Shown piece by piece: positions 580 through 32,817 of a DNA stretch of 64,000 bases. The DNA is from Candidatus Omnitrophota bacterium. Lineage in GTDB: Bacteria; Omnitrophota; Gorgyraeia; B26-G9. Numbering within the stretch: position 1 is the first letter of the stretch; every line of letters starts with the position of its first letter. A program made the translations under genes and the position numbers. The notes under the pieces are model-generated. The model ran no database searches. It saw nothing but the letters and a program-made list of their open reading frames with translations, and was not told where the DNA came from. The stretch is taken from NCBI GenBank assembly GCA_043814605.1, contig JBDRJV010000017.1:5445-69444 (forward strand), read 5' to 3'.

Positions 580-585
580 TTTTTA

Positions 586-2166
586 ATGAAAATAAATATC
601 TGGGTTATCTTAATTGTGGGAGCCGCAGTATTAAGTGTAATCATCATTGTCAATAGTACAATTACTAAGCTAATGGGCGGATTTATCTTGCTGGTATTAT
701 TAGCCTATTTAGCGGAAGTTTCACGTGAGGAACGTGAACAAATCGCGAAGATGCAAAGAGCGTTAGATAAATTAAGAAATGCCTATAATGAACTTGATGA
801 ACAAGCCAAAATTATTATCCGTACTGACCTTGAACTGAACCGCACCCAGGAAGAACTCGATAAAAAAATCAATGGATTGTATACTTTACACGAATTAGGT
901 AAGTTGATCAGCTCAACATTGGATGTACAGCTTTTATTTTCTCAAATCACAGAACCTTTGATTTTAAAACTGGGTTTTGAGAAGACGATGATTTTTTTAA
1001 AAGAAAAAAGTGACGAAAATCCCCAATGCAAAGCGGCAATTGGATTTGACCATGAGCATATAAAACAGATTGAACAAGCTAATATCACTGCAGAATTTTT
1101 AAAAAATGTATTTGAAAGAGGCAGTTCTGTCTGGGTAAAGAGTGTTGATGGTGCAAGTAATGAGCAGAAAGAATGGCTGAAATTATTTGGTGTCTCTTCA
1201 TTTGTAATTGTTCCCATGGTAATTAAGGAGCATGTCGAAGGGTATATTTTTGTGGGAAATACGACAACCTATAATTATATATCGGAAGGAGATATTGATT
1301 CTCTATTTATTCTTTCTAATCAGCTGGCAATTGCTTTAGAAAATGCCCGCCTTTATGAAGAATTAAAAAAATCACATGATCAATTAGAAATTAGAGTTGA
1401 AGAAAGGACAAAAGAGTTAGCCGAAGCAAATAAGCAATTAGTTCGTTTAAATAAAATGAAATCTGACTTTGTTTCTGCGGTCTCCCATGAATTGCGTACT
1501 CCGCTAACTTCTATAAAAGGGTATGCATCGATACTAAGTGCCGGCCGGCTGGGGCAAGTGAGCGAAGTGCAGTCAGAAAAATTAGATAAAATCAATAAAC
1601 ATAGTGACGAATTAATAAAATTGGTTAATGATTTATTGGATATTGCCAGAATTGAATCCGGCAAGATCGGCATGAGCATAAAACATGCATCCCTGACAGA
1701 AATTATTCGGAGTATTGCGGATTTATTTTTCCCGCAAACTGATGAAAAACATATCGCTTTAAAATTAGAAATGCCTCCGGAACCGATAAAAGTTTGGATG
1801 GATCCGAGTCAAATATCGCGTGTGTTTATTAATCTGATCGGTAATGCGATGAAGTTTACACCGGAAAATGGTTCGATCACCATAAAAGTTAAACCCCTCC
1901 AGGATTACATAAATATTGCAATTACGGATTCAGGAATTGGTATTTCTGAGGAAGATTTACCGCGATTATTTGATGAGTTTTACCGTGTGGATAATGCGAT
2001 TAATGCCGAAAAGAAGGGCACGGGATTAGGGTTACCGCTGGTTAAAAAGATTATTGAGGCCCATAAAGGAAAAATATGGGCTACAAGTGAAGTAGGAAAA
2101 GGTACTACTTTTCATTTTACTCTCTCTTTACACGAAGTTGAAGATTCTCAATTAAACGTCCATTAA
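586..2166 (+). CDS. Sensor histidine kinase, membrane-anchored, GAF + HisKA + HATPase_c
   Basis: N-terminal TM segment and coiled coil. GAF-like region. H-box SHELRTPL. G-boxes GTGLGL near the C-terminus. Starts 7 nt after the FIST gene stop. Confidence 0.85.
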   Translation: MKINIWVILIVGAAVLSVIIIVNSTITKLMGGFILLVLLAYLAEVSREEREQIAKMQRALDKLRNAYNELDEQAKIIIRTDLELNRTQEELDKKINGLYTLHELGKLISSTLDVQLLFSQITEPLILKLGFEKTMIFLKEKSDENPQCKAAIGFDHEHIKQIEQANITAEFLKNVFERGSSVWVKSVDGASNEQKEWLKLFGVSSFVIVPMVIKEHVEGYIFVGNTTTYNYISEGDIDSLFILSNQLAIALENARLYEELKKSHDQLEIRVEERTKELAEANKQLVRLNKMKSDFVSAVSHELRTPLTSIKGYASILSAGRLGQVSEVQSEKLDKINKHSDELIKLVNDLLDIARIESGKIGMSIKHASLTEIIRSIADLFFPQTDEKHIALKLEMPPEPIKVWMDPSQISRVFINLIGNAMKFTPENGSITIKVKPLQDYINIAITDSGIGISEEDLPRLFDEFYRVDNAINAEKKGTGLGLPLVKKIIEAHKGKIWATSEVGKGTTFHFTLSLHEVEDSQLNVH

Positions 2167-2170
2167 ATAG

Positions 2171-3118
2171 GTGATGTATATAATGCGCAAACAAAAAATA
2201 CTAATTATTGATGATGAACCAGACATTCGCGATGTTTTAAAAATTACACTGGAATGTGAAGATTTTGAAGTGTATGAGGCACGTGATGGAGTGGAGGGGC
2301 TTGAGAAAGTTCATAAAAATTCTCCGGATCTGGTTATTTTAGACTATAAAATGCCCAAGATGAATGGGCATGAAGTCTGTCAAATATTAAAAAAAGATAT
2401 TCTTTTGAGGCATATGCCCATTATTATGCTTACGGGAAAAGGAGAGACTCAGGATAAAATAAAAGGCATAAATGCTGGGGCGGATGATTATTTGGTTAAA
2501 CCATTTGACCCGCAGGAGCTGGTTGCGCGTATAAAAATGATTGTACGCAGAAGTACACGTGATTTGGATGCGAATCCATTGAGCCGTTTACCGGGCAATG
2601 TAACGATTATGAGCGAACTAGAAGCCGTAATTAACAGCGGTAAAAATTTTGCTGTCTGCTACCTGGATTTAGATAAATTTAAAGCGTTTAATGATACTTA
2701 CGGTTTTGAACACGGAGATGAGGTAATTCGTGAAACAGCCAGAATTATACTCAGTGTTGTCCAGGAAATTGGGGATAAAGAAGATTTTGTCGGTCATATC
2801 GGCGGTGATGACTATGTAATTTTAACTACAATAGAAAAAGCCGAAGAAATTTGTATAAGAATTATCCGCGAATTTGACGAAGTAGCGCCATCTTTTTATA
2901 ATCAATTAGATAGACAAAGGGGTTTTATCTTAGCGCAAGACAGACAAGGTAATGCCATGCAAATACCGCTAATCTCTGTTTCGATCGGAATTGTTACTAA
3001 CGAAAATCGGCACATTTCTCATGTTGCCGAAATTGGTGAAATCGGCGCTGAACTCAAAAAAGCAGCCAAAGCTAATTCGGGAAGTAATTTTGTTAAGGAT
3101 AGCCGCAAAGCAGAATAA
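2171..3118 (+). CDS. Response regulator, REC domain fused to GGDEF-like domain (signature GGDDY instead of GG[DE]EF)
   Basis: REC motifs (LIIDDE…, DLVILDYKMP, phospho-acceptor Asp context, KPF). C-terminal block LDLDKFKAFNDTYGFEHGDEV … GHIGGDDYVIL aligns to the GGDEF fold, but the A-site reads GGDDY. Confidence 0.8.
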   Translation: MMYIMRKQKILIIDDEPDIRDVLKITLECEDFEVYEARDGVEGLEKVHKNSPDLVILDYKMPKMNGHEVCQILKKDILLRHMPIIMLTGKGETQDKIKGINAGADDYLVKPFDPQELVARIKMIVRRSTRDLDANPLSRLPGNVTIMSELEAVINSGKNFAVCYLDLDKFKAFNDTYGFEHGDEVIRETARIILSVVQEIGDKEDFVGHIGGDDYVILTTIEKAEEICIRIIREFDEVAPSFYNQLDRQRGFILAQDRQGNAMQIPLISVSIGIVTNENRHISHVAEIGEIGAELKKAAKANSGSNFVKDSRKAE

Positions 3119-3126
3119 TATTTATT

Positions 3127-4221
3127 TTAATGACTGAAATAGCTTTTTTCAAATGCGTATTTGCGCGCTGTTCTCAGACTTATTTTTGCGCCATCTAAAA
3201 GATCATGTAATGACTGATCCATTGTTTGCATGCCTTCACGTCCGCCGCTTTCAATCATATTTTTTATTTGAAATGTTTTATTCTCCCGAATAAGATTCCT
3301 AATCCCCGTATTTGCAACCATAACTTCACAGGCCAAATATCTTGTATCTCCATCACGCGACGGAACTAAATTTTGGGAAACAACAATATTTATTGCCTCG
3401 GCAAATTGAATTCTAATCTGAGCCTGTTGTTCTGCAGGGAAAACATCAATCACCCGGCTCACAGACTGCGCTGCCGAACGGGTATGCAAGGTACCAAATA
3501 CAAGGTGACCGGTTTCTGCGGCAGTAACTGCATTAGAAATAGTTTCTAAATCACGCATTTCTCCCACTAAAATAACATCGGGATCTTCTCTTAAAGCCGC
3601 CCGTAAGGCCTGCGCAAAAGTTTTAGAATCAGTTCCAATCTCTCTTTGATTAATAACACTGCGTTTATGTGTATGCAGATATTCTATGGGATCTTCTAAA
3701 GTAATTATATGTGTTTGCCGTTCGTTATTAATTTGATCAATTATCGAAGCTAAGGTTGTGGATTTTCCGCTGCCCGTTGGGCCAGTTACTAAAACCAGCC
3801 CTCTTTGTAATTCGCAAGCTTTTCTCACTGAAGCGGGTAAGCCTAAAGTTTCCAGCGGTTTAATCTTTTGCGGAATTTGCCTTAATGCCGCACATATTCC
3901 ATTACGGTCATGATAAATATTCAACCGGAATCGTGCAGAATTCCCGACTGTGACTCCAAAATCTAGTTCCTGGCCTCTATTATTAAAATCAATTTCCCGG
4001 GCCGGAGGAGTAATACTGGTTAAAATTTCCCGGATGTCATTTTCCTGGAGTTTTTCATTACCCAAAGGCATTAGGCTTTCCGCTTTTCTTACCATGGGCG
4101 GTAAGCCGACGCATAAATGTAAATCTGAAATTTCTTTTTCCAGTATTTCCTTAAATAAATTTCTATATTTTTCCTGCATACAGGATTGATTATAAAATGA
4201 ATTTTCAGTCTCGTCAATCAA
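3127..4221 (-). CDS. pilT: Type IV pilus retraction ATPase PilT/PilU family
   Basis: Walker A GPTGSGKSTT, Walker B ILVGEMRD, and PilT-like length (364 aa) with PilT-like N-terminal domain. Confidence 0.85.
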   Translation of the reverse strand: MIDETENSFYNQSCMQEKYRNLFKEILEKEISDLHLCVGLPPMVRKAESLMPLGNEKLQENDIREILTSITPPAREIDFNNRGQELDFGVTVGNSARFRLNIYHDRNGICAALRQIPQKIKPLETLGLPASVRKACELQRGLVLVTGPTGSGKSTTLASIIDQINNERQTHIITLEDPIEYLHTHKRSVINQREIGTDSKTFAQALRAALREDPDVILVGEMRDLETISNAVTAAETGHLVFGTLHTRSAAQSVSRVIDVFPAEQQAQIRIQFAEAINIVVSQNLVPSRDGDTRYLACEVMVANTGIRNLIRENKTFQIKNMIESGGREGMQTMDQSLHDLLDGAKISLRTARKYAFEKSYFSH

Positions 4222-4422
4222 ATAAATTTAATTAATAAAATAATATTGATGTTAAACTTTGATAATGTTAAAATAAATTAACCGAAAAATTAATATTAAT
4301 AAGAGTATCAAGTAACAACTGTTAATTTTAATCAGTTTTTTATAATCAAGTGAATATAAATAATCATTAAAAATTAATTTTAACTATGTTTTAATTTGCA
4401 GTAATTACACAGTCTGAATTGT

Positions 4423-6057
4423 ATGAAAAAAATCACTTTTGGCTTAAGAAGAAAACTGTATTTAGCTAGTATGCTGGTTACGATTATCGGTGCGGTAATC
4501 GTATGCTGGTATGTAATAACTTATTATCGGGTAATTATTACAGAAGATTTAGAGAAAAGGGCAATCACCTTAGCTAAAAATCTGGCACATGAATGTATCG
4601 GACCGATTATCTTAAAAGATGAAAACACTTTATTAAGTTTGGTTAATAGGATTTTAAAAGAACGTGATATAATTTATACGGCTATTTATGATAAAGACGG
4701 AAATATTCTCGTTCAAGGCGGGCCTTTTAATATAGAAAACATTCCTCAGTCAGTTAAGAAAAAATCTTTAATCACCCATGTAAATTTAGTACAAAAATAT
4801 TTATCCGCTAAGGAAAATTTAATTTATGATATTAGTGTTCCCCTGCATACTGAGGGTTCATTAGAGAACAATGATTCCGAAGACAAGAGCATAGATGAAG
4901 AAAGCCTTTTTTTCACAGGTGAAGGAAAAGAAAGTTTTAGTGTAAAAGTAGGATTAGCCAGAATTGGTATTTCTTTTAAAAACAGTAACCAATCAATTAT
5001 TATTCACCGTAATAAAATTATTTTTATAAACTTAGTGTTATACTGTATTTTTTTAATACTCATGCACTTTATTGTAAATTCAATACTTATGCCGATCAGC
5101 CTTTTATTAAAAGGAACTCAGAAAATCGGAGCCGGAGACTTGAACTATAAAGTTAGAATTAAAAGCTCAGATGAAATCGGACAACTGGCTGATTCTTTTA
5201 ATAAAATGGTAGACAATTTAAATATTTCGACAACATCCATTGAAAACCTTAACAAAGAAATTATGGAGAGAAAATTTGCCGAAGAAAAGCTAAAAGAAGC
5301 TTATCAGGAACTGAAAGAAGCCCAGCAGCAGCTTTTACAATCAAGTAAACTTTCCGCTATGGGGCAAATGGCCGCAGGCATATCCCATGAACTTAACCAG
5401 CCCTTGACCGGAATTAAAGGGTTTGCACAAATTTTAGCCATGGATTTAGGTAAAGACAGCCCCTATCTTACAGATGTAAATAATATTATTGAACAGGCAA
5501 ACCGCATGGATAGCATCATTCAAAATGTACGTTTTTTTGCGCGAAAATCAGAATTTAAATTAGAGAAATTAAATGTTAATGATCCGATAAAAAATGCAGT
5601 GAACTTACTTCAGGAGCAATTAAAAATACACAGTATCGAATTAATTTCGGAACTTGATCCGGATTTGCCGCAAATTTATGGAGATAATAATCAATTGCAG
5701 CAGATATTTTTAAATTTAGTAACTAATGGCCGCGATGCGATTGAGATGGCCCATAAATCTGAACCGGGAAAAATTATTATAAAAAGCCAGCAATGCAAAG
5801 AAGATAAATATATTTTAGTTACCTTCGAAGATAATGGCTGTGGAATTCATAAAGAAAATTTGGAAAATATTTTTAATCCTTTTTTTACAACAAAAGCACC
5901 GAATGGGGGAATGGGGTTAGGATTATCCATAGTTTATCGAATTGCTGAAAACCATAAGGCAATTATTGACGTTGAAAGTGAACAGGGGGAATTCACTATT
6001 TTTAAAATTATTTTCCCCGTTGCAGATGATTATATTGCCTTTGATAAAAAAGCTTGA
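4423..6057 (+). CDS. Sensor histidine kinase with two TM segments, extracytoplasmic domain, HAMP, HisKA, HATPase_c
   Basis: TM1 near residue 15 and TM2 near residue 200, followed by a HAMP-like linker (GDLNYKVRIKSSDEIGQLADSFNKM). H-box SHELNQPL. N/G-boxes (NLVTNGRDA, GGMGLGLSI). Confidence 0.85.
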   Translation: MKKITFGLRRKLYLASMLVTIIGAVIVCWYVITYYRVIITEDLEKRAITLAKNLAHECIGPIILKDENTLLSLVNRILKERDIIYTAIYDKDGNILVQGGPFNIENIPQSVKKKSLITHVNLVQKYLSAKENLIYDISVPLHTEGSLENNDSEDKSIDEESLFFTGEGKESFSVKVGLARIGISFKNSNQSIIIHRNKIIFINLVLYCIFLILMHFIVNSILMPISLLLKGTQKIGAGDLNYKVRIKSSDEIGQLADSFNKMVDNLNISTTSIENLNKEIMERKFAEEKLKEAYQELKEAQQQLLQSSKLSAMGQMAAGISHELNQPLTGIKGFAQILAMDLGKDSPYLTDVNNIIEQANRMDSIIQNVRFFARKSEFKLEKLNVNDPIKNAVNLLQEQLKIHSIELISELDPDLPQIYGDNNQLQQIFLNLVTNGRDAIEMAHKSEPGKIIIKSQQCKEDKYILVTFEDNGCGIHKENLENIFNPFFTTKAPNGGMGLGLSIVYRIAENHKAIIDVESEQGEFTIFKIIFPVADDYIAFDKKA

Positions 6058-6148
6058 TGATTTTAAATTAAAAAAATTATAAAGATAAGATATTTTCAAT
6101 TTTTTATGTTTTCTTTTTTAATCATTAAACTTAGGAGAAAATAATTCT

Positions 6149-6709
6149 ATGCCGGATACCTCTAAAGGTATGCTTTTTAATATGATCCTTAAGTTTATCC
6201 AACAAAAAGGTAAACCGGAATTAATCCATAAAATCAGCGCACAATTGGATAAACCGCTTAAATATATTGATTTTTTTGATTACCCTGTACAAGAATTAAT
6301 GCTGATTACTGAAAAAGCCGCTAAAGGTGTTTTCCCGGATAAAAAAATCGAAACAGCGTTATATACTCTCGCCCGAGAAACATTCACTATTTTAGCGCAA
6401 ACTCCTATCCTGAAAGCAATGCTACCCCGCGCAAAAAGAAATCCGATGAGTGTAGCGCAAAAAATTCCTTTTTTATACAGACAAATCAACTGTTTTGGTA
6501 ATATTTCAGTAGTTGATGTAAAAGAAAAAAGCTGCCGGATAATTTTTAAAAATTATAAAAGTTTTCCCCATTTACAACAAGGATTTTTACAACAAGCCTG
6601 TGATTATTTAGGTTTTATTACTGAAGTCAGTTTAGATATTATTAAGTTTAAAAATAATGGTAACGGGGACATTTTAACTGATTTTGATTTAAGTTTGAAA
6701 TTAAGTTGA
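6149..6709 (+). CDS. Cassette protein A1: ~186-aa conserved hypothetical, putative small-ligand sensor domain (paralog family of 4 in window)
   Basis: ORF with own RBS. 55-65% identity to 7286..7846 and 8327..8887. Conserved blocks TKGMxFN, GKPLKYIDFFDY, FKNYxSxPxLQQGFLQ, NNGNGDI. No TM segment or signal peptide. Confidence 0.7.
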   Translation: MPDTSKGMLFNMILKFIQQKGKPELIHKISAQLDKPLKYIDFFDYPVQELMLITEKAAKGVFPDKKIETALYTLARETFTILAQTPILKAMLPRAKRNPMSVAQKIPFLYRQINCFGNISVVDVKEKSCRIIFKNYKSFPHLQQGFLQQACDYLGFITEVSLDIIKFKNNGNGDILTDFDLSLKLS

Positions 6710-6731
6710 TTTTAAATCAGAGGAGGGTTCT

Positions 6732-7103
6732 GTGGGTAACCGCATAAAGTGGATAGTGTACAAGAACAAACGAATTCTTTTCCACGATTACTCAGGCATT
6801 AGAGGGTTTCAGGGTGAAGGGGAGCAATTAGCACAAGAGGTGAATGAGTTTGTAGAGAAATTGACAGAATATAATATTTTAGAATTAGTTGATGTAAGGA
6901 ATTCATTTGGTGATTTAGAATCAGTAAAAAGGCTTAAAGAAATATCTAAACGATTAAAGCCGCGCATAAAAAAATCTGCAGTAATCGGCGTTAGCGGGAT
7001 AAAAAAAGTTATTTTAGATGCAATTAATACTTTTTCCGAAAGAAAAATTAAACCGTTTAAAACTGAGGAAGAAGCAAAAGAATGGCTGATTTTGGAAGAT
7101 TAA
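6732..7103 (+). CDS. Cassette protein B1: ~123-aa STAS-like (anti-sigma-antagonist-like) protein, GTG start
   Basis: AGGAGGG RBS 4 nt before GTG. Conserved LELVDVRNSFGDLESV (resembles the DLSxVxFxDSSG phosphoserine loop) and a C-terminal …EEEAKEWL helix typical of STAS/SpoIIAA fold. ~70% identity to the copy-2 partner. Confidence 0.6.
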   Translation: MGNRIKWIVYKNKRILFHDYSGIRGFQGEGEQLAQEVNEFVEKLTEYNILELVDVRNSFGDLESVKRLKEISKRLKPRIKKSAVIGVSGIKKVILDAINTFSERKIKPFKTEEEAKEWLILED

Positions 7104-7145
7104 ATCGTTTTAAAGGTTTATAATATTATAATTTTTGGTTTATAC

Positions 7146-7240
7146 ATCCGCGGCCTAAAACCGCGCCCATTTATGGCGCGGATAAAAGGAGGCCGCTTGA
7201 GTATTCCACCCCAGGAACCACGGGCTTTAGCCCGTGGGGG
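7146..7240. repeat. GC-rich nested palindromic element (two strong hairpins) in the intergenic spacer between cassette copies 1 and 2
   Basis: Inner stem CCGCGCC-catttat-GGCGCGG (7161..7181) is nested inside GCGGCC…GGCCGC (7150..7196). A second hairpin CCACGGGC-ttta-GCCCGTGG lies at 7218..7237. GC content is far above local background. Confidence 0.45.
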
Positions 7241-7285
7241 TTACATTTCTGGATAATTTCTAAAAAGAAATCGAGAGAATTTTAA

Positions 7286-7846
7286 ATGCCGGCAACAACA
7301 AAAGGAATGTTTTTTAATGTGGCTTTTAAACTGATTACGGCAAAAGGTCACGCGGAATTAATAGAAAAAATCAGTAAAAAGCTGGGCAAACCTCTTAAAT
7401 ATATTGATTTTTTTGATTATCCCATAGAGGAATTTATGCTGATTGTCGAAGAGGCGATTAAATATATTTACCCGGATAAAAAATTCGAAGAAGCATTATA
7501 TATTTTATCCGAAGAATCATTTGACCTGATCATGCAGACCCCGATAATTAAAGCAGTATTATCCGGAGCAAAGAAAAATATGCAAAATATTGCAAAACGC
7601 ATTCCTTTTATCTATGAACAATTCAATCACTTTGGAAAAATTTCTATTATTGATTTAAAAGAAAAAAACTGTGTGATTGCTTTTAAAAATTATAAAACTT
7701 ATCCGGAACTGCAGCAGGGTTTTTTACAAAGAACCTTTGATTTTCTAAAGCTTAATCACACTGTAGAACTAAACATCCATAAATTTAAAAATAATGGAAA
7801 CGGCGATATTACCGCTGATTTTGATATAAGCTTAAAATGGGGTTAA
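7286..7846 (+). CDS. Cassette protein A2 (paralog of 6149..6709)
   Basis: Same conserved blocks and length (186 aa) as A1. Own start context. Confidence 0.7.
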   Translation: MPATTKGMFFNVAFKLITAKGHAELIEKISKKLGKPLKYIDFFDYPIEEFMLIVEEAIKYIYPDKKFEEALYILSEESFDLIMQTPIIKAVLSGAKKNMQNIAKRIPFIYEQFNHFGKISIIDLKEKNCVIAFKNYKTYPELQQGFLQRTFDFLKLNHTVELNIHKFKNNGNGDITADFDISLKWG

Positions 7847-7868
7847 TTTTTTATAAAGGGTGGTTTAT

Positions 7869-8240
7869 ATGACTAATCGGATAAGGTGGATAGTATATAA
7901 AAACAAGCGTATTCTTCTAGTTGATCTTTCTGGGATTAGAGGGTTTAAGGGCGAAGGGGAGCAATTAGCAAAAGCCGCGGCTGATTTTGTGGATAAATTA
8001 AGAGAATATGAGCTCATCGAATTAATTGATGTCCGGAATTCATTTGGTGATTTAGAATCAGTGAAAACAATGAAAGAACTATCTAAAAAATTAAAGCCGC
8101 ACATAAAGAAATCTGCAATCATTGGAGTAAGTGGGATAAAAAAAGTTATTCTCGATGCGATTAATTCTTTTGCCGAAAGAAAGATTAAACCGTTTAATAC
8201 AGAGGAAGAAGCAAAAGAATGGCTGATTTTAGAAGATTGA
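7869..8240 (+). CDS. Cassette protein B2, STAS-like (track start 7860 is GTG; ATG at 7869 preferred)
   Basis: MTNRIRWIVYKNKRIL…VRNSFGDLESVK…EEEAKEWLILED. ~70% identical to B1. Confidence 0.6.
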   Translation: MTNRIRWIVYKNKRILLVDLSGIRGFKGEGEQLAKAAADFVDKLREYELIELIDVRNSFGDLESVKTMKELSKKLKPHIKKSAIIGVSGIKKVILDAINSFAERKIKPFNTEEEAKEWLILED

Positions 8241-8326
8241 ATGTTAAAAAATTTTAAAGCATTAAAGGTTTAATAATTATTCGCTGAATTATTTAAATAA
8301 TAACTATTATGGGGAAGAGATTTTAA

Positions 8327-8887
8327 ATGCCAGAAACAGCAAAAGGTATACTTTTTAATGTAAATTTAAAATTCATTAAAAATAAGAATAAACCAGAATT
8401 ACTGGAAAAAATCAGTAAAAAGCTGGGCAAACCGCTTAAATATATTGATTTTTTTGATTATCCTGCCCAGGAATTATTGGTTATTGTTGAGGAAATTGCT
8501 AAAAATATTTTTCCCCATAAAAAAACTGACGAAGTTTACTATTTATTAGCACAGGAAAACTTTGCCACTCTTGCGCAAACACCGATTCTAAAAGCAATGC
8601 TGCCTCGCGCAAAAAAAAATCCGCGGATTATTGCGCCAAAAATTCCGTTTTTATATAAGCAAATTTACCGCTTCGGAGAAATTTCTGTGGTTGACCTAGA
8701 AGAAAAAAGCTGCCGTATAGTTTTTAAAAATTATGTTAGTTTGCCGCAGTTACAACAGGGTTTTTTGCAAAAAGTTTCTGATGTATTAGGGTTTAATCAT
8801 AAAGTAGGCTTAAATATCCACAAATTTATAAATAATGGTAACGGAGACATAAAAGCAGATTTTGATTTAACCCTTCGCTGGGATTAA
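8327..8887 (+). CDS. Cassette protein A3 (paralog)
   Basis: 186 aa, same conserved blocks. Confidence 0.7.
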   Translation: MPETAKGILFNVNLKFIKNKNKPELLEKISKKLGKPLKYIDFFDYPAQELLVIVEEIAKNIFPHKKTDEVYYLLAQENFATLAQTPILKAMLPRAKKNPRIIAPKIPFLYKQIYRFGEISVVDLEEKSCRIVFKNYVSLPQLQQGFLQKVSDVLGFNHKVGLNIHKFINNGNGDIKADFDLTLRWD

Positions 8888-8919
8888 AAATACTTAATTA
8901 TAAGGAGTAATAAAGTTTT

Positions 8920-9291
8920 ATGAGTAACCGCATACGCTGGATTGATTATAAGGGAAAAAAAATACTTGTGCACGATTATTCTGAACTTAAAGGATTTAAT
9001 AGGGGGGGAGAACAAGTTTTAAATGAAGTGTCTAATTTCATTGATAAATTAACTGAGAATAATATACTCGAATTAATTGATGTGAGAAATTCTTATGGCG
9101 ATTTAGACTCAATAAAAAAAATGAAGGAAATGTCCAAAAAAATGCAGCCGCATGTAAAGAAATGTGCAATAATCGGGGTGACGGGTGTAAAAAAAGTTCT
9201 TTTAGATACAATTAATGTTTTTTCCCAGCGCCAGATTAAACCGTTTGCCACAGAAGAGGAAGCCAAAGAATGGCTGGTGGCTGAGGATTAG
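8920..9291 (+). CDS. Cassette protein B3, STAS-like
   Basis: 123 aa with NSYGDLDS loop and C-terminal EEEAKEWLVAED. More diverged than B1/B2. Confidence 0.6.
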   Translation: MSNRIRWIDYKGKKILVHDYSELKGFNRGGEQVLNEVSNFIDKLTENNILELIDVRNSYGDLDSIKKMKEMSKKMQPHVKKCAIIGVTGVKKVLLDTINVFSQRQIKPFATEEEAKEWLVAED

Positions 9292-9293
9292 AT

Positions 9294-9746
9294 ATGAGGA
9301 ATAAAATTTATTCAAGGTTAAAACTCTTAGGAAATAAAGAATATTGGATAAAAATATTTATGTTTGGATTTCCTTATTTTCTTATTGTTGATGCATTAAA
9401 AGTTATTTTAATTAATATTCTGCTCATAACTCGTGGAATGTCAACTTACTTGGCTCACTCTACTTCAATGTTTTTATTGATTGGAGATATGGGATTATCT
9501 ATTGGTTTAACTTTTGCAGCGTTGCTTGTTTTATGTGGAAGTATCGGTTTAATACTGAAAAAGAACTGGGCCAGGGGTTATATGTTTATAATATTCCTAC
9601 ATTATTGCATTTTCCAGATATTATTTATACTGTATGCTTCAGGTAATATGTCTTCCTCTTTAATCGAAATGATTCCGGCAACCATTATTTATATGCTAAT
9701 AATTTATGTTTATACTCGTCCTAAAGTAAGGGAGCGGTTTAAATGA
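9294..9746 (+). CDS. Hypothetical integral membrane protein (4 predicted TM helices)
   Basis: Hydrophobic 150-aa ORF starting 3 nt after the B3 stop. Confidence 0.5.
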   Translation: MRNKIYSRLKLLGNKEYWIKIFMFGFPYFLIVDALKVILINILLITRGMSTYLAHSTSMFLLIGDMGLSIGLTFAALLVLCGSIGLILKKNWARGYMFIIFLHYCIFQILFILYASGNMSSSLIEMIPATIIYMLIIYVYTRPKVRERFK

Positions 9747-9765
9747 TAAAAATGGAGGTGAGGAG

Positions 9766-10020
9766 ATGAAGGAGAAAGAAATAGGTGTTATAAATCATTA
9801 CTTTAATAAACTTTCTGTAGGAATTATTGAATTAAAGGGCTCTTTAAAAGTAGGAGACACTATCCATATAAAGGGGGCTCACGATGATTTCAGCCAAACG
9901 ATTGATTCTATGCAAATAGAACATGAAACAGTTGAATCTGCTAAAAAAGGTGAATTTGTGGGTATCAAGGTTGTGCAGCAAGTTCATGTCAACGATAAGG
10001 TATTTTTAGTTGCAGAATAA
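9766..10020 (+). CDS. Small conserved hypothetical (84 aa), beta-rich, possibly EF-Tu domain-2-like barrel
   Basis: GGAGGTGAGGAG RBS. Pattern GxIxL.G.LKVGDTIHIKG…GEFVGIKV resembles translation-factor domain II-like small proteins. Weak assignment. Confidence 0.4.
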   Translation: MKEKEIGVINHYFNKLSVGIIELKGSLKVGDTIHIKGAHDDFSQTIDSMQIEHETVESAKKGEFVGIKVVQQVHVNDKVFLVAE

Positions 10021-10056
10021 TATAGCGGTTGGAATATTACCATACAATTTTATTAA

Positions 10057-10085
10057 GGGGATAGTCTTATAGCTATCCCTTTTTT
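10057..10085 (+). terminator. Intrinsic terminator (GGGATAG-loop-CTATCCC + T6)
   Basis: 7-bp stem, 8-nt loop, TTTTTT run directly after the 9766..10020 gene. Part of a 37-bp element repeated at 13387..13423. Confidence 0.6.
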
Positions 10086-10086
10086 A

Positions 10087-10115
10087 TTGACTAAATGTAA
10101 AGATAGGAGTATGAT
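10087..10115 (+). promoter_or_regulatory. Near-consensus sigma70-type promoter TTGACT-17 nt-TATGAT
   Basis: -35 TTGACT at 10087..10092, exact 17-nt spacer, -10 TATGAT at 10110..10115. AGGAGGG SD at ~10150 precedes ATG 10163. Confidence 0.5.
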
Positions 10116-10162
10116 TCTTATATTAAATAATTACAAAAATAACTAAAAAAAGGAGGGTTAAA

Positions 10163-10387
10163 ATGGAAGGACAGGAAAGTAAGCATGACCGTTTTAAAAG
10201 ATTAGCCAGTAAAAGGGTTCAGAATGCCATTAAGAAAATAGAGATCATTGGTAATCTTGCCTCACCGGGGTATGAGTATTCAGAAGAAGATGTAGAAAAA
10301 ATCACAAGCTCACTTCAAGCAACTCTTGATCAGGTTAAAAACGCTTTTTCAAAAAGAAAGCCAAAAGTTCAGAACTTTACTTTATAA
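10163..10387 (+). CDS. Small Lys-rich hypothetical protein (74 aa) with strong expression signals
   Basis: Consensus promoter, AAAAAGGAGGG SD 6 nt upstream of ATG, and a 13-bp perfect terminator immediately downstream. No recognisable family. Confidence 0.6.
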   Translation: MEGQESKHDRFKRLASKRVQNAIKKIEIIGNLASPGYEYSEEDVEKITSSLQATLDQVKNAFSKRKPKVQNFTL

Positions 10388-10388
10388 A

Positions 10389-10424
10389 ACAGATTAAAAT
10401 CCTGATGATTTTAATCTGTTTTTT
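10389..10424 (+). terminator. Strong intrinsic terminator
   Basis: 13-bp perfect stem ACAGATTAAAATC / GATTTTAATCTGT, 5-nt loop, followed by TTTTTT. Confidence 0.8.
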
Positions 10425-10437
10425 GATTAAACATAAG

Positions 10438-10478
10438 TACAAACTCTGTAAATAAATTACAGAGTTTTTGTACTTTTA
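10438..10478. terminator. Second imperfect hairpin + T-run (possible back-up/bidirectional terminator)
   Basis: GTACAAACTCTGTA-aataaat-TACAGAGTTTTTGTAC, then TTTTAT. Confidence 0.4.
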
Positions 10479-10894
10479 TAAGGTTTTATGAATTTTGATA
10501 ATTTTTGATGTAAATAGACATCTATATGGACACCAGGTAGATGGGGCTACAGAGAATCTAACCCCAGTGGGCATATGAGACTTTTATCTTACATTAGTTC
10601 AATAAATACTTGACAATTTATTAAAATATGAGGAAGAAGTGGCGAAAATAGCGGCGGAGAACGAGTAGATATGAAACAATGGCGGAAGAAAAATAAAAGA
10701 GGAGATTTAAGATAGAAAGGGGCTATGCTGCCCCTTGAAGATAAATGAAGCGCAAAGCACCCTTGCCTAAACATTGCAAATTATCTAATGATAATTTGCT
10801 ACTAGGCTACGGGCATAAATTAGAACTTATTACTTATGTCACTTTGTTCCATAAGCAATGTTCTCATTTAGAAAACAGCCCTGGGAAACAGCGA

Positions 10895-11075
10895 TGATTT
10901 TCTAATGGTTTACTCACTACGACTTCGCTGCCAATTCGGCAGTCCTGCCTCAATGGCGTTCGTCCTGGCTGCATCTTCGTTCCTAAACCAAAGAAAATTA
11001 CCTGTCTCGCCGTGTTTGTGGCGGATATCGCTTGGTTTCAAAAGGGGATTAACAAAAGTTAAACCCTTTTAGTAT
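10895..11075 (+). promoter_or_regulatory. Candidate structured cis-regulatory RNA (GC-rich island in the 5' leader of the radical SAM gene, ending in hairpin AAAAGGG…CCCTTTT)
   Basis: About 50% GC inside a ~30% GC leader. Several local stems (CTGCC-aattc-GGCAG; CGCC-gtgtttgt-GGCG). The terminal 7-bp stem with U-tract at ~11040..11075 lies 85 nt before the start codon. No match to riboswitch classes I can recall. Confidence 0.3.
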
Positions 11076-11158
11076 ACTTGATAACAATAATGAAACATGG
11101 TATACTTTAATATTCAAACCTGTATAAAATAATATAATTAATTGAAAATAAAAGAGTT

Positions 11159-13345
11159 ATGATTAAAATTCGGATATTTAAAAGAGTTGTATCTATGATC
11201 TTACTGCAAGCCTTTTTGTTCGGGGCAGTTAGGTCAATCTATGTCTATGCTCAGGAACAGTCAATACTGAGTCCTCGAATAAGTTTGGGCCAGCCTGACT
11301 TGCAAACAGCAATGACCGAAAAAATGTCTTTAGCGCACTTTCCACCGTTAGATATTAGAGGAATAATAAAAGTAGGAAGAGGAGCAATAATATCAAAATC
11401 TTTGGTGACTAAAGAGGATCAAGCGTCCCAAGTTTTTTTTAAGAAAGCTTTACAGGGACTAGAACAGATCGAAACGATACAATGGTTTATAAATTTAAGA
11501 TGTGTTCTTAGATGCGATCACTGCTACTTAACACCAGAGCAGAAGAAAATGCCTCCTACCTCTTATCAGCAAGTATTAGATATTAGTAAAAAGATCAATA
11601 AACTCCCTGGGATTAAAGGAGTGGTAATTAACGGAGGGGAACCTTTTGCTAACCTTAAATTGATATATTTAGCATTAAAGGAATTAAAAGTACCAAAAAT
11701 AGGCCTTATGACTAGTGGTTTTTGGGCGAAAACACCTTTTATTACCAGTCGTGTTCTTGAAAATATAGTTAACGCTGCGGGAGATAAACACTTAGTTCTA
11801 CAAGTTAGTGTTAACGAATTTATTATGAAACAAAGAACCAAAAATAAAAAGCTTGGGTTTACTTTAGATAACTGGGTTAATATTATTAGGACTGTTGATG
11901 AACAATATTCTAAGAAAATTACTTTAGTGATTACATCTTTCTATAATGATCCAATATTCAATCAGTTAAAAAAGAAAATAGAGGACGAGGGTCTTAAAAT
12001 GCCTGAAGTCCGCAGATCAATAATGGAGTTTATTGGGCCAGCAGGAACCAACTTAGAGCGCAATGAATATAAGCAATGGGTTAATGTAGATAGCGCAGAC
12101 ATTTTTGTCCACAATAAATCTTTAGCAATCTATCCAGATGGGAAAGTAACTGTCGCTGCAGAGTTTTTAGGAGTATTAGAGGCAGGGAATATTTGTAAGC
12201 AGGGATTCCCAGACATTATTGATAATATTAATAAAGATTCATTATTCTACTTTGTTTTAACCAAGAAGGAACCAGCCAGACAATTATTAAGGATGGCTGC
12301 TCATTTTAACCCTGAGCTTGTAAATAAATGTAGCGATGAAATACTAGATGCTCCTAAAATTAGATTGCTGTTAGAAGATCCTATATTGAGATATTGTCTT
12401 AGAAAATTGGTGATTTGGAAGCTCTATAATGAACATGAACTTTTATTCATTGATGAAGATATGAAAAAATATGTCAACAAGCCTATTAGTGAGTTTATGT
12501 TGGAATTGGATAGAGAATACACTGGTCAAAAACAAGAAAAAGGAGAAGACGTAACCATAGTTAGTCTAAAAGATAAAATAATTATAGATTGGTTTGATAT
12601 TTCTAATCCAGCCACAGATTGGAAGAAAATATTTGGTAACAATAACAATCCCCAGGAACTTATAATTGGAAGTCTTTCGAGGTCTATGATCAAAGAAGCC
12701 CAAAAAAATCTTGCCAAGAATTATATCTGGGTTCAAACAATAAATCCTGCAGATACTACATATTTTATTGAGAAAGAAATTAGAGAAAAAAACATTCAAA
12801 ATGTCCGGTTAATCGATGCAGACATAAGAACGGCTATCCAGTCGATGTTTACCTTCGAGCAGATTTCTAATCTTTATGTATATTATACAGGAGCTGACAA
12901 ACGGATAGAAGAGTTTGAACGGCAAAAGTCAGGAGGAATGTATTATTCTGCTGATCCATATCTGCGGCATTTATATATAGAGATGCAGCAATCAGAATTG
13001 CAATATCCACCAAAAGGCTATTGGTTGGATTTTAGACAAGAAGGTTTATTACAGCGATTTTTAACCGTCATAAAAACAGGAGGTGTTTGTCATATCAGCA
13101 GCTGTGTTAGTGACTACATCGCTAGTGTTACCCGTATGATTGATTCTCATAAAATGGACATTCAGACTTTTGATAAGCCTAGTATGTTACCGGAAATAGG
13201 AGTCAACATAACTAATTATCTGGGGATTAGGAAAATACTACCTCTGAGTCCAAGTTGCTTAACGACCGCGAATGTTTCGATTCCTCAATTAAGAGCGAAC
13301 CCCGCTGGGACTTATCAATCGAAAATTATACAGAGTAGTATATAG
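11159..13345 (+). CDS. Atypical large radical SAM domain protein (728 aa) with N-terminal hydrophobic segment and ~450-aa C-terminal extension of unknown function
   Basis: CxxxCxxC motif CVLRCDHC at residues ~115-122, followed by a G-rich SAM-binding-like segment GVVINGGEPF. No SPASM/twitch Cys cluster seen. N-terminus MIKIRIFKRVVSMILLQAFLFGAV is hydrophobic. Confidence 0.75.
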   Translation: MIKIRIFKRVVSMILLQAFLFGAVRSIYVYAQEQSILSPRISLGQPDLQTAMTEKMSLAHFPPLDIRGIIKVGRGAIISKSLVTKEDQASQVFFKKALQGLEQIETIQWFINLRCVLRCDHCYLTPEQKKMPPTSYQQVLDISKKINKLPGIKGVVINGGEPFANLKLIYLALKELKVPKIGLMTSGFWAKTPFITSRVLENIVNAAGDKHLVLQVSVNEFIMKQRTKNKKLGFTLDNWVNIIRTVDEQYSKKITLVITSFYNDPIFNQLKKKIEDEGLKMPEVRRSIMEFIGPAGTNLERNEYKQWVNVDSADIFVHNKSLAIYPDGKVTVAAEFLGVLEAGNICKQGFPDIIDNINKDSLFYFVLTKKEPARQLLRMAAHFNPELVNKCSDEILDAPKIRLLLEDPILRYCLRKLVIWKLYNEHELLFIDEDMKKYVNKPISEFMLELDREYTGQKQEKGEDVTIVSLKDKIIIDWFDISNPATDWKKIFGNNNNPQELIIGSLSRSMIKEAQKNLAKNYIWVQTINPADTTYFIEKEIREKNIQNVRLIDADIRTAIQSMFTFEQISNLYVYYTGADKRIEEFERQKSGGMYYSADPYLRHLYIEMQQSELQYPPKGYWLDFRQEGLLQRFLTVIKTGGVCHISSCVSDYIASVTRMIDSHKMDIQTFDKPSMLPEIGVNITNYLGIRKILPLSPSCLTTANVSIPQLRANPAGTYQSKIIQSSI

Positions 13346-13386
13346 GAACGAAAAAGAAGTTAACTTCAGCAATATATAAACATATC

Positions 13387-13423
13387 AAGGGGTAGTATTC
13401 GGGCTATCCCTTTTTTATTGACT
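13387..13423 (+). repeat. Second copy of 37-bp terminator-like element (AAGGGG…CTATCCCTTTTTTATTGACT), direct repeat of 10055..10092
   Basis: About 32/37 identity with the copy at 10055..10092, including the T6-ATTGACT tail. Here the stem is degraded by a 1-nt deletion and there is no -10 element. Confidence 0.45.
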
Positions 13424-13673
13424 TAACTAGTAGCATAAGACTCCGAACCATCAGAGAGATAGTTAGTTGACTTTTCTTGCCAAAAACTTTAAACTAATTG
13501 TAATATTTTAATTTAACATTTATCATTCGTAATTTATAATTTGTCACTTGTCATTTGCCCCAAATGATGCAACATCTTTAGAGAAATCTTCGGGGGCCCG
13601 AAGAAAAACTTCTCTGGATATCCACATTCGGGATAATTTGTAATTCCCTCCAAAGGAGGGCGTGGGGTCATGG

Positions 13674-13749
13674 CGCAGTTGGGAGCGCGCCTCGTTCGCA
13701 ACGAGGAGGTCGGGGGTTCGAATCCCCCTGACTCCACCAAAAAAAATAA
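13674..13749 (+). tRNA. tRNA-Ala (anticodon CGC), CCA encoded
   Basis: Hand-folded cloverleaf: acceptor GGGGTCA/TGACTCC with G3:U70 wobble (Ala identity element), D-arm GCGC/GCGC, anticodon stem CCTCG/CGAGG with loop TTCGCAA, T-arm GGGGG-TTCGAAT-CCCCC, then ACCA. Confidence 0.85.
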
Positions 13750-13926
13750 ACCCTCGACCTCAAAAAGGGGATTTTAAGGGGAAAGATTGTTTCCCCTTAT
13801 CAGGGTATTAGAACTTCTTTGCGGAAGGAAAAGGACCAGTCCCGGCATAGGCGGGACGATAGGGGAAAACCTTAAGGGTTGTCCCCTATAGAGCGAATAA
13901 AATGAGCGATGAGGGCGGGGTTCGAA

Positions 13927-13957
13927 TCCCCCTGACTCCACCAAAAATGAGCAGAAG
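13927..13957 (+). repeat. 31-bp direct repeat of the tRNA-Ala 3' end (GGGGTTCGAATCCCCCTGACTCCACCAAAAA), att-site-like scar
   Basis: Identical to 13723..13753. Lacks the 5' half of the tRNA. Copies lie 204 bp apart. Confidence 0.6.
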
Positions 13958-13964
13958 GCTTACG

Positions 13965-14003
13965 CAACCAAAGGGAGCGTAAGCCTTTTTGCGAATTTAT
14001 ATA
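13965..14003 (+). terminator. Intrinsic terminator (11-bp perfect stem AAGGCTTACGC/GCGTAAGCCTT + T-run)
   Basis: Read directly. Lies just downstream of the tRNA 3'-end repeat. Confidence 0.65.
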
Positions 14004-14294
14004 GAGGAAGCTTTTGCAACGAGATGACTCCAATGCTCATTTTTAGTGTCCGTAGGGGAAAACGTAGTTTTCCCCTTTCGGCGCTCACCATCCTCATGGG
14101 GCTCGCTGTCACCCCTTTCCCAGAGGACTATTGCTTTTCAAGGAAAGGGAAGAGTCTTATCCTCCCTTTCCTTGGTAACCATACCTACCTAAAAAGGTGT
14201 CGACTTCGTCGACCAATAATTAAAAAAATTTTAAAAAATATTTAACGATAACCCAAGTTAGTATCCTATTTTTAAGCGATGCTATTGATTAAAG

Positions 14295-15038
14295 TTGAAG
14301 AAATATGTTATAATAAAAGCTATGAAAAATAATAAATTATATAAAATAAAAGTCTTCCTGGTTTTACTAACTGTGAGTATTTTATTTGGGTTGTGTATTA
14401 AAAATGTCTACGCTGAGGTTAATGTAGGTGCAACCCGTGAGGAAATCATTGCAACTTTCGGACAACCTACAGGAACCATGAACAGCGGGGATGAAGAAAT
14501 ATTAACTTATCCCGGAGGATTAATTGTTTTACGTGATGGAGTTGTTCAAAGTATGGATGATAAATTTAGCGAACGCTTAGCAGCACGGAAAAAAGAAAAT
14601 GAATTTGAACAAAAACAGAAAAAAAACGGGTTTATACAGTATTTGGGCCAATGGGTTACCCCGCAAAAGAAAAAGAATATTGAAGTAAATAAAAAGTTGG
14701 AAAAGAAAATTTTTGTCTATTCACAGGGAGGGCAGGAAATTGCAATAAATGAGTTACTTGTGCCGGATAAAATTACCATTGTGGATTTTTATGCTGACTG
14801 GTGCGGGCCTTGTAAAGCCATGGGGCCTAAACTGGAAAAACTGGCACTCTCTGATCCTGATGTTTATTTAAGAAAAGTTAATATTATAAAATGGGGCACC
14901 CCGGTTACAAAACAGCATCGGATCAGGGCCATTCCGGATGTACGCGTATTTACACGCAAAGGATATTTACTGGGTAAACCAACACACAGCATTCAGGAAG
15001 TGGAGCAGTTCGTTAAAGAGGCAAAAGATATCCGTTGA
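14295..15038 (+). CDS. Exported thioredoxin-family protein (signal/TM anchor + C-terminal thioredoxin fold)
   Basis: N-terminal hydrophobic segment. WCGPCK active-site motif within a thioredoxin-like block. Confidence 0.75.
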   Translation: MKKYVIIKAMKNNKLYKIKVFLVLLTVSILFGLCIKNVYAEVNVGATREEIIATFGQPTGTMNSGDEEILTYPGGLIVLRDGVVQSMDDKFSERLAARKKENEFEQKQKKNGFIQYLGQWVTPQKKKNIEVNKKLEKKIFVYSQGGQEIAINELLVPDKITIVDFYADWCGPCKAMGPKLEKLALSDPDVYLRKVNIIKWGTPVTKQHRIRAIPDVRVFTRKGYLLGKPTHSIQEVEQFVKEAKDIR

Positions 15039-32733: not shown

Positions 32734-32817
32734 GCGGGCGTAGTGGGAGTGGTACCTGTGCCGCCACTTATTGAAAAACATCCTGAGATTATATCAGGGC
32801 GGCAGAACATCAGCTTC
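32734..32817 (+). pseudogene. Disrupted tRNA-Gly-like fragments (5' part GCGGGCGTAGTGGGAGTGG … GGCAGAACATCAGCTTC)
   Basis: Two segments, near-identical to the 5' acceptor/D-arm and the D/anticodon-stem of the intact tRNA-Gly ~190 bp downstream, separated by ~48 nt of unrelated sequence. Confidence 0.5.

Follow-up and report, generated by a model that had tools for sequence, protein, structure and literature searches.

The described systems closest to the locus reported here are intrinsic (Rho-independent) terminators, including short repeated elements which carry a terminator, islands integrated at tRNA genes and their integrase-less remnants (CIMEs, PMC5704250), the epimerase YydG/EpeE of Bacillus subtilis (PDB 8ai1-8ai6; model TIGR04078) and the PDC-M33 operons. 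Islands of the tRNA-integrated type lie between the regenerated gene and the displaced 3' fragment (PMC4383910). EpeE, a radical S-adenosylmethionine (SAM) enzyme, requires an auxiliary [4Fe-4S] cluster in an extended twitch (T-SPASM) domain, and also Cys223, which quenches the C-alpha radical (PMC13012085). The PDC-x systems, to which the PDC-M33 candidate defence operons belong, are unpublished PADLOC candidates (PMC11811056). We have analyzed 64,000 nt of DNA from a Candidatus Omnitrophota bacterium (GenBank assembly GCA_043814605.1, contig JBDRJV010000017.1, positions 5,445 to 69,444), with a G+C content of 34%. This whole stretch is called the window, and all coordinates refer to it unless another locus is named. 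Two copies of a direct repeat, for which we use the name element E, bracket the interval 10055-13423, which contains a gene for a protein of 74 amino acids (aa) and a gene for a radical SAM protein of 728 aa. A tRNA-Ala(CGC) gene follows the second copy.

A first-pass annotation considered this interval as one module, a cassette resulting from recombination between the repeats, with some resemblance to the loci of ribosomally synthesized peptides with post-translational modifications (RiPPs). Our results point to a different organization, to which we assign a probability of about 0.6: the interval would consist of separate transcription units which reuse a terminator element, not of a single module. 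E is a predicted short terminator element, conserved in at least two Omnitrophota genomes behind three unrelated genes.

In our proposal, the 74-aa gene and tRNA-Ala(CGC) are resident, the interval is a slot of variable content between them, and it holds separate transcription units. A gene for an 84-aa protein would end at the Rho-independent terminator formed by the left copy of E, and the ATTGACT behind its T run would provide the -35 hexamer for the promoter of the 74-aa gene. The latter would be monocistronic, with a strong ribosome-binding site, and closed by two terminators. A non-coding stretch of about 0.6 kb comes next. The lineage-specific radical SAM gene would then be read from a promoter-like site of its own and would end at the second copy of E. 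This gene and the spacer preceding it probably replaced, or were replaced by, a 149-aa gene which is found in a relative.

E is like intrinsic terminators in its G+C-rich stem of 10-11 pairs, its T6 and its place after a stop codon; it differs from them because its conservation is asymmetric and runs 7-12 bases past the T run, and its copy number looks low. The tRNA-Ala gene has a perfect 31-nt copy of its 3' end, and the adjacency to a tRNA recalls the Islander-type geometry of islands (PMC4383910) and CIMEs (PMC5704250). Nevertheless, tRNA and fragment enclose only 174 nt, the block between the E copies lies on the 5' side of the tRNA, its repeats are not derived from the tRNA, and there is no integrase. 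The radical SAM protein has in common with YydG/EpeE the fold and the CX3CX2C, GGEP and GFWA motifs. However, it lacks the cysteines of the auxiliary cluster and the hydrogen-atom donor Cys223, adds an N-terminal signal-like helix and a C-terminal half of 270 residues without relatives, and has no adjacent gene for a precursor like YydF/EpeX. Finally, the small protein which leads the PDC-M33 operons (PMC11811056) is homologous to the 74-aa protein of the window, but PDC-M33A and PDC-M33B are not found in the window.

Element E and the organization of the interval

The features of the region are as follows (a dot means that no strand is assigned):

9766-10020, + strand: gene (open reading frame, ORF) for an 84-aa protein resembling the beta-barrel of EF-Tu domain 2, with a sub-threshold match to Pfam GTP_EFTU_D2; its transcript would end at the left copy of E
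10055-10092, + strand: left copy of E, with a hairpin (10055-10082), T6 and then ATTGACT
10087-10115, + strand: promoter-like site TTGACT-17-TATGAT, whose -35 hexamer is the tail of the left E; putative promoter of the 74-aa gene
10163-10387, + strand: gene for the 74-aa protein, a conserved small protein with two helices; ribosome-binding site AAGGAGG at 10150-10156
10386-10422, + strand: first predicted terminator of the 74-aa gene, a perfect 16-bp stem overlapping the stop codon, with a T run (-16.1 kcal/mol, z -7.6)
10441-10467, + strand: second predicted terminator behind the 74-aa gene (-12.6 kcal/mol, z -4.7)
10470-11040,. : non-coding spacer, whose right part (10862-11073) reaches 51% G+C
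11041-11070,. : hairpin between A4 and T4 (-11.6 kcal/mol, z -2.8), not scored as a terminator
11078-11106, + strand: promoter-like site TTGATA-17-TATACT with a TG extension, 10 of 12 consensus matches, 53 nt before the start of the radical SAM gene, its putative promoter
11159-13345, + strand: gene for the 728-aa radical SAM protein, with an N-terminal signal-like helix, a YydG-like core (about residues 100-455) and a C-terminal half (459-728) which cannot be modelled
13387-13423, + strand: right copy of E, with a hairpin (13387-13412), T6 and ATTGACT, lacking a -10 hexamer downstream; putative terminator of the radical SAM gene
13513-13540, + strand: best promoter-like site of the region, TTAACA-16-TATAAT, 11 of 12 matches, upstream of tRNA-Ala
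13664-13739, + strand: tRNA-Ala(CGC); in the relative L012/L013 it is likewise next to the small gene
13744-13947, + strand: insert of 174 nt with about 50% G+C, and behind it 31 nt which repeat the 3' end of tRNA-Ala perfectly, including CCA (13917-13947)

The inventory given by the first-pass annotation is correct: the ORFs and hairpins which it placed between the repeats are all found, the 74-aa protein has no Cys, and tRNA-Ala(CGC) lies 241 nt to the right of the second repeat. The repeats themselves, which it had located at 10055-10092 and 13387-13423, also appear in a repeat search of the window, as a pair of 38 nt (10058-10095 and 13389-13426) with 84% identity and a spacing of 3331. 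They are not random. In fact, the 21-mer GCTATCCCTTTTTTATTGACT, found at 10072 and 13403, occurs exactly twice in the window, also when three mismatches are tolerated; 0.02 occurrences are expected by chance, and none of 100 shuffled sequences contains two or more matches.

The consensus layout of E extends over some 40 nt: a GGGATAG...CTATCCC hairpin, T6 and ATTGACT. For searches it takes the form GGGRTAG-N(3-8)-CTATCCCTTTTTTATTGAC. Both copies are scored as terminator-like: each is a G+C-rich stem of 10-11 bp with a T run, located on the same strand as the gene whose stop codon precedes it. The folding energy is -14.4 kcal/mol (z -3.8) for the left copy, 35 nt past the stop codon of the 84-aa gene, and -13.7 kcal/mol (z -3.5) for the right copy, 41 nt past that of the 728-aa ORF. 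Nowhere else in the window does a terminator hairpin precede a T run and ATTGAC. The TTGACT tail of the left copy is followed by TATGAT 17 nt downstream, with 10 of 12 consensus matches, and it is plausible, as suggested previously, that this hairpin works as a terminator and its tail as a -35 hexamer. No -10 hexamer is present at a workable spacing from the TTGACT of the right copy.

A scan of metagenome contigs with the exact 21-mer gave two matches. One of them (L096) lies inside the coding sequence of a membrane protein and is a chance match. The other one (L095) is in contig SDBU01000102.1 of the Omnitrophota assembly SDBU01, from which locus L001, mentioned below, also comes. It carries AGGGATAGC-TTTTGAG-GCTATCCCTTTTTTATTGACTTAACT (-15.9 kcal/mol), located 26 nt behind a 61-aa ORF; the ORF which comes after the element codes for 324 aa and has a hydrophobic segment at its N-terminus. 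The similarity between L095 and the window is restricted to E, where the right copy aligns over 42 nt (88%) and the left one over 39 nt (85%). L095 and the right copy have 26 exact bases in common, as their identity extends through TAACT. What differs among the three copies is the 5' arm and the loop, the 21 nt made up of the 3' arm, T6 and ATTGACT being invariant; the distance from the stop codon to E is 26-41 nt. E was not found in the remaining 94 fetched loci, nor was its 20-mer in viral contigs. The tally is therefore two copies in 64 kb, with no further one in the window, and a single exact match from one other assembly in the scanned collection, at an unrelated locus. We have also considered E as an attC-like site of an integron. 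This was rejected: there is only one GTTRRRY-like core, present in two of the three copies.

The presence of E beside an unrelated gene in another Omnitrophota assembly suggests a dispersed terminator element, not an insertion scar. As a short element at the 3' ends of two genes of the window, E appears to have been used twice, which argues against integration joints.

The second line of evidence comes from a syntenic relative, represented by two loci: L012 (ENA ERZ27247117), the longer one, and L013 (JGI Ga0180009). Positions 314-3445 of L012 match positions 1-3110 of the window, which code for a FIST protein, a histidine kinase and a GGDEF response regulator, with 71% identity in DNA and about 80% in protein. 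The order in L012 is thioredoxin, methyltransferase, PCC, an 81-aa homologue of the 74-aa protein, a 149-aa protein, tRNA-Ala(CGC) and a Na+/H+ exchanger. In L012/L013 the 81-aa homologue is 84% identical to the 74-aa protein and the tRNA-Ala(CGC) 93% identical. The gene between them codes for 149 aa (144 aa as called in L013), with a lipoprotein-like N-terminus; no trace of this protein was detected in the window by tblastn. Neither L012 nor L013 has a radical SAM gene, the spacer or E. The DNA which differs from the window is located to the left of the small gene and between the small gene and the tRNA.

Since the small gene and tRNA-Ala(CGC) are neighbours in both lineages, the small gene is probably resident and did not arrive with the block. 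Judged from its other contexts, it is also independent of the radical SAM gene. The comparison with L012/L013 splits the interval: the radical SAM gene, spacer and E behave as variable DNA, absent from these loci, and the small gene and tRNA-Ala remain together. The interval 10055-13423 cannot be maintained as one unit.

The position of the thioredoxin-domain gene is also different. It directly follows the response regulator in L012, and in the window it is found 11 kb further on, past tRNA-Ala (3127-15038 in the window, 3445-6970 in L012), so the stretch from the 74-aa gene to tRNA-Ala lies on opposite sides of this gene in the two genomes. A search of a genome collection with the thioredoxin-domain neighbour gave generic thioredoxins (WCGPCKAM) of unrelated phyla, and no relative, among the matches listed.

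Several observations weigh against separate units with a reused terminator. The promoter and terminator calls are consensus matches, and the region contains 20 promoter-like sites where 17.1 are expected in shuffled sequences. These matches are thus no commoner than in shuffles, and separate transcription, termination by the hairpins and activity of the promoter-like sites are inferred from the sequence. Only three copies of E are known, and the search covered 64 kb of this genome. The sole syntenic relative is fairly distant, with its protein identity of about 80%. E sits at both synteny breakpoints with respect to L012/L013, which would also fit a role of E in rearrangements. Finally, the window and the genome of L095 have an exact match of 26 nt, although the 74-aa proteins of these two genomes are only 85% identical; this exceeds what termination needs.

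The spacer

Between the 74-aa gene and the 728-aa ORF there are 770 nt without a convincing ORF. Its four small ORFs of at least 40 aa have 43-61 aa, and six-frame translation of the spacer itself, some 600 nt, reveals no open frame and no gene remnant. A search of either strand against Rfam, with E values up to 10, gave no match (in the whole window, Rfam finds two tRNAs and noise), and neither did blastn searches against plasmids, phages and the fetched loci. No counterpart was found upstream of the radical SAM homologues.

The first-pass annotation described this region as a long structured leader. This description is borne out weakly, by a predicted local structure of moderate strength. 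For the 611-nt stretch 10470-11080, the folding z value is -2.2 on the + strand and -5.3 on the - strand. In sliding windows, values of -3 to -4.5 are found only within 10660-10980, and they are stronger on the - strand, while the part richest in G+C (10900-11060, from windows across 10900-11099) has z values of about 0.

Among the alternatives we have considered, the spacer as a long 5' leader, a riboswitch-like regulator of the radical SAM gene, or as an independent gene for a non-coding RNA is the one that survives best, but it seems rather unlikely. The lack of ORFs, the local G+C content of 51% against 34% in the genome, the predicted structure (including the z value of the - strand) and a weak promoter-like site at 10475-10502 agree with it. 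On the other hand, the most G+C-rich part looks unstructured, it is the other strand, not that of the gene, which folds more strongly, nothing homologous is found in Rfam, upstream of the radical SAM homologues or elsewhere in the sequences searched, and a better promoter-like site (11078-11106) is placed between spacer and gene.

Recombination and cassettes

The origin of the block by recombination is somewhat less likely. According to this explanation, a circular or donor DNA with E, the 74-aa gene, the spacer and the radical SAM gene would have recombined with a chromosomal E located by the leader of tRNA-Ala, and both copies of E would be the joints. Two direct repeats with 21 exact bases do bracket the block. 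The TTGACT of the right copy, without a -10 hexamer, is what a passively copied piece of a promoter would look like, and the relative has no radical SAM gene. Nevertheless, in L012/L013 tRNA-Ala(CGC) has the small gene as its neighbour in the absence of E and the radical SAM gene, and E is found at an unrelated locus in another genome. There is no ORF for an integrase or a transposase: outside the radical SAM ORF, the only ORFs of at least 40 aa are the 74-aa gene and the four ORFs of the spacer, and a Pfam scan of the 74-aa and radical SAM proteins found no recombinase domain. The G+C content of the block (0.33-0.40) is like that of the rest of the genome, and homology stops within about 3 nt of E on both sides.

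The position of the tRNA does not help this explanation. The displaced 3' fragment lies downstream of tRNA-Ala, which places an integration-type site on the 3' side of the tRNA, where elements integrated into tRNA genes are located, away from the block. With E behind an unrelated gene in L095 and the block on the 5' side of the tRNA, a cassette derived from recombination between the repeats is at most a minor possibility.

E might also be the 3' boundary of small mobile cassettes, each formed by a gene and E, which are exchanged at synteny breakpoints. The 84-aa gene and the spacer with the radical SAM gene would then be two acquisitions. We regard this as improbable. It agrees with the finding of E after genes which are not related to each other (that of the 84-aa protein, that of the radical SAM protein and the 61-aa ORF of L095) and with its location: both copies are exactly at the synteny breaks with respect to L012/L013, and the DNA to the left of each copy differs. 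The 21-26 exact bases in common between genomes suggest recent spread or sequence-specific selection. However, only three copies are known, with no linked recombinase, and there is no second conserved site, target duplication or terminal inverted repeat apart from the hairpin. At the 3' end of a gene, a terminator is what one would expect by default. Still more improbable is the wider claim that E is more than a terminator, a sequence-specific boundary of Omnitrophota gene cassettes, in which a gene that is acquired or exchanged brings E along at its 3' end. If true, it would explain at once why E is found at both breakpoints and behind three unrelated genes, with 21-26 identical bases which continue past the T run.

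The small gene

The 74-aa protein has 24 homologues, with 52-86% identity; it is conserved over the full length, at 58-86% identity across homologues, and the strong ribosome-binding site is kept in the homologous genes. An AlphaFold2 model (pLDDT 84) is a helical hairpin of two helices. The protein has no match above threshold in Pfam, NCBIfam or PHROGs; a profile search of the PDB gave designed helical proteins only, and Foldseek found no match of the model in the PDB. The first-pass annotation took the gene to be highly expressed. A good promoter match and the AAGGAGG site make this conceivable, though promoter-like matches occur at the frequency of shuffled sequences.

In other Omnitrophota the small gene has been found in seven contexts (L001, L003/L004, L006, L009 and L108-L110), none of which includes a radical SAM neighbour. 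These contexts are varied. In L001, RadC is upstream and an RNase H-like gene downstream; RadC is also present in L108. An acetyltransferase is the neighbour in L003/L004, with HEPN/nucleotidyltransferase and methylase genes further upstream. L006 has a DHH phosphoesterase and an S8 peptidase, L009 has unannotated genes, and L012/L013 have a PCC-domain gene. A second 74-aa ORF in L006 suggested several copies of the gene in one genome, but it is unrelated and this possibility was rejected.

In some relatives, the start codon of the 74-aa homologue comes directly after a long hairpin with CTCATTAAAGGAGGT behind it (L003, 7940-8000 and 9020-9078; L001, 7940-8000). The same combination precedes an unrelated gene in L003, and it is absent from the window. 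It may be a shared motif of the 5' untranslated region.

Distant homologues, 34-41% identical, are found in plasmids of Deinococcus, Planococcus, Arthrobacter and Agrobacterium and in the Clostridium innocuum phage NatCom_9291. The E values are 1e-8 to 5e-3 for tblastn against phages and plasmids, and 4e-15 to 5e-8 for pairwise blastp. In these plasmids and in the phage, the small gene is the first of an operon, directly upstream of PDC-M33A, or of PDC-M33A/B if there is a B gene. When a locus has the two genes downstream, they match PADLOC PDC-M33A and PDC-M33B with E values from 1e-205 down to 7e-28, the latter for truncated copies in Deinococcus; the PADLOC scan covered the operon genes other than the downstream genes of Agrobacterium. 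The PDC-M33 operons do not contain any radical SAM gene.

PDC-M33 (A and B) is consistently preceded by a homologue of 74-77 aa: L104 (3001-5955), L105 (1907-4921), L106 (3492-6486) and L103 (2980-5962). No PADLOC model matches the small protein of Planococcus or the 74-aa protein of the window. As for the surroundings, a DUF6339 gene follows in two plasmids, the operon stands beside dcm (cytosine-methyltransferase) and vsr restriction-modification genes in three plasmids, and in the phage it is beside an integrase.

No such operon is present in the window, where tblastn with the PDC-M33A/B proteins gave nothing below an E value of 0.4, and a PADLOC scan of the 728-aa protein gave only a weak match to pVip (24.7 bits). 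Behind the small gene of L001, L003/L004, L006, L009 and L012/L013 there is no gene of the size of PDC-M33A, judging by gene size and not by a PADLOC scan of the neighbours. An idea weaker still than that of E as a cassette boundary is that in the window the 74-aa protein, at the head of a candidate defence operon elsewhere, might work with the orphan, signal-bearing radical SAM protein.

The radical SAM protein

The 728-aa protein has a CX3CX2C motif and matches Pfam Radical_SAM with 31.7 bits (cutoff 29.5). A word-index search found only the protein itself. In an exhaustive HMMER search of 1.84 billion representatives, two relatives stand out beyond generic radical SAM similarity: P0026 (407 aa, 33% identity over residues 106-452) and P0027 (964 aa, 27% identity over residues 89-278). 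No match was found there for residues 453-728. The contexts of these relatives (L097 and L098) have no neighbour in common with the window, and the small gene is absent from them. The absence of the radical SAM gene from the closest syntenic relative and the great rarity of its family mark it as accessory and lineage-specific.

In the AlphaFold2 model, residues 100-455 are confident, with a core pLDDT of 80-97, while the part beyond 459 is unusable (pLDDT below 50). The best Foldseek match in the PDB is EpeE/YydG (8ai6_A), with an E value of 1.9e-12, a target-normalised TM-score of 0.78, 336 columns and an rmsd of 3.9. A profile built from the query and 13 radical SAM proteins, some of them distant, also gives YydG as its best match (7e-51). 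For the protein alone, the YydG model TIGR04078 is the best NCBIfam match, though with 29.9 bits, far below the cutoff of 300. The C-terminal half has weak matches to TrmB/Methyltransf_4 (21-25 bits), below the cutoffs, and might conceivably be a methyltransferase.

The residues C115, C119 and C122 align with C14, C18 and C21 of YydG, and the GGEP and GFWA motifs are aligned too. In the alignment of the query, P0026 and P0027 there are no cysteine counterparts of C206, C222, C223, C289 and C292 of YydG. C206, C222, C289 and C292 include the presumed ligands of the auxiliary cluster. The YPCC of YydG corresponds to YPDG in the query and to FPDG and SPWG in the homologues, and Cys223 is replaced by Gly328 in the query and by Gly in both homologues. 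Since the cysteines of the auxiliary cluster are absent and the score is far below the cutoff, the protein has a YydG-like scaffold but does not appear to be a member of the YydG family.

In all three members of this family the protein opens with a segment which is hydrophobic and signal-like, and L(S/A)P comes after it (11159-11260 in the window; L097, 5866-6000; P0027, residues 20-60). In the window the segment reads MIKIRIFKRVVSMILLQAFLFGAVRSIYVYA-QEQSILSPR, without a twin-arginine motif; the NCBI annotation starts at Met13. In P0026 it becomes visible only if the reading of the ORF is extended upstream, beyond the called start. Such a predicted segment is unexpected for an oxygen-sensitive radical SAM Fe-S enzyme.

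A RiPP locus, in which the 74-aa product would be the precursor and the 728-aa protein its maturase, is highly improbable: it would fit a small gene upstream of a radical SAM gene on the same strand, and also the best fold and NCBIfam matches, but the two genes do not co-occur in either direction (none of the seven other contexts of the small gene, neither of the two contexts of the radical SAM homologues), they are probably kept apart by two strong terminators and 770 nt, the enzyme lacks the cysteines of YydG, and the full-length conservation, the varied contexts and the homologues outside the phylum, which lead PDC-M33 operons without a radical SAM gene, make the 74-aa protein, with its two-helix fold, unlike a precursor with a leader and a variable core.

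The tRNA genes and their inserts

The 3' fragment of tRNA-Ala is found downstream, at 204 nt from its counterpart in the tRNA. The insert which separates them contains GGGGAAA...TTTCCCC hairpins. A hairpin with a T run follows at 13956-13990, and beyond it there are 300 nt more of G+C-rich non-coding DNA, up to 14290. Since there is no terminator between tRNA-Ala and the insert, the whole stretch looks co-transcribed. A tmRNA in this trailer was rejected: ARAGORN does not detect any, and the match to the permuted tmRNA has 19 bits, against a gathering score of 47.

The same layout is found at tRNA-Gly(CCC), in positions 32979-33180 of the window. A repeat of 48 nt (94% identity), formed by the 3' end of the tRNA and 26 nt more, occurs twice, 154 nt apart. 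The insert at tRNA-Gly is 77% identical to the one found behind tRNA-Ala in L012 (6811-6973) and L013 (1140-1302). As this insert is shared across tRNA-Gly and tRNA-Ala, it appears to be one family of elements located behind two tRNA species, each with a duplicate of its own host's 3' end. In L013 the first copy of the 3' end is without CCA, and the second one has it. The ThiC, tRNA-Gly(CCC) and M23 peptidase genes stand in the same order in L099 (2830-3000), L100 (1798-1968) and L101 (2772-3000), with no insert and no duplicated tRNA end. These are more distant relatives, whose M23 peptidase is about 60% identical. They look like empty sites, which suggests that the insert was gained in the lineage of the window. 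No match to the motif of these inserts was found in the viral contigs scanned.

An RNAalifold consensus of two homologous inserts (33090-33160 in the window; 1236-1299 in L013) pairs the end of the insert with the duplicated 3' strand of the acceptor. The pairings are GGGCG-CGCCC for Gly and GGCCG-TGGCT for Ala, and an internal GGGG or GGUG pairs with C72-N73-C74-C75; both track the host tRNA. This could be a functional tRNA-trailer RNA which ends in a tRNA-like minihelix, though with two sequences chance is also conceivable.

Upstream of tRNA-Gly (32734-32810) there are pieces of the 5' half of the tRNA: GCGGGCGTAGT, about 57 nt, and GGCAGAACATCAGCTTC. They may be a broken copy of tRNA-Gly or a further, decayed insert.

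Other features of the window

Positions 6149-9291 contain three tandem paralogous pairs of genes. Each pair has a DUF2378 gene (186 aa each, at 6149, 7286 and 8327) and, after it, a SpoIIAA/STAS-like gene (about 123-126 aa). Two intergenic regions (7128-7311 and 54383-54553) have 47-50% G+C and no Rfam match at the gathering threshold. The first one holds the paired hairpins ccgcggcc...ggccgc and ccacgggc...gcccgtgg.

Biological significance

A mobile RiPP-like cassette beside a tRNA would have been a useful lead, but the evidence removes it. What remains is, in the first place, a short putative terminator element which is conserved across Omnitrophota genomes beyond the needs of termination. 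The radical SAM protein belongs to a very rare YydG-like family, which appears to have lost the auxiliary cluster and carries an N-terminal signal-like segment. The 74-aa protein is now tied to the small gene which heads the PDC-M33 candidate defence operons. Finally, the inserts linked to tRNA genes may be the most interesting feature of the window.

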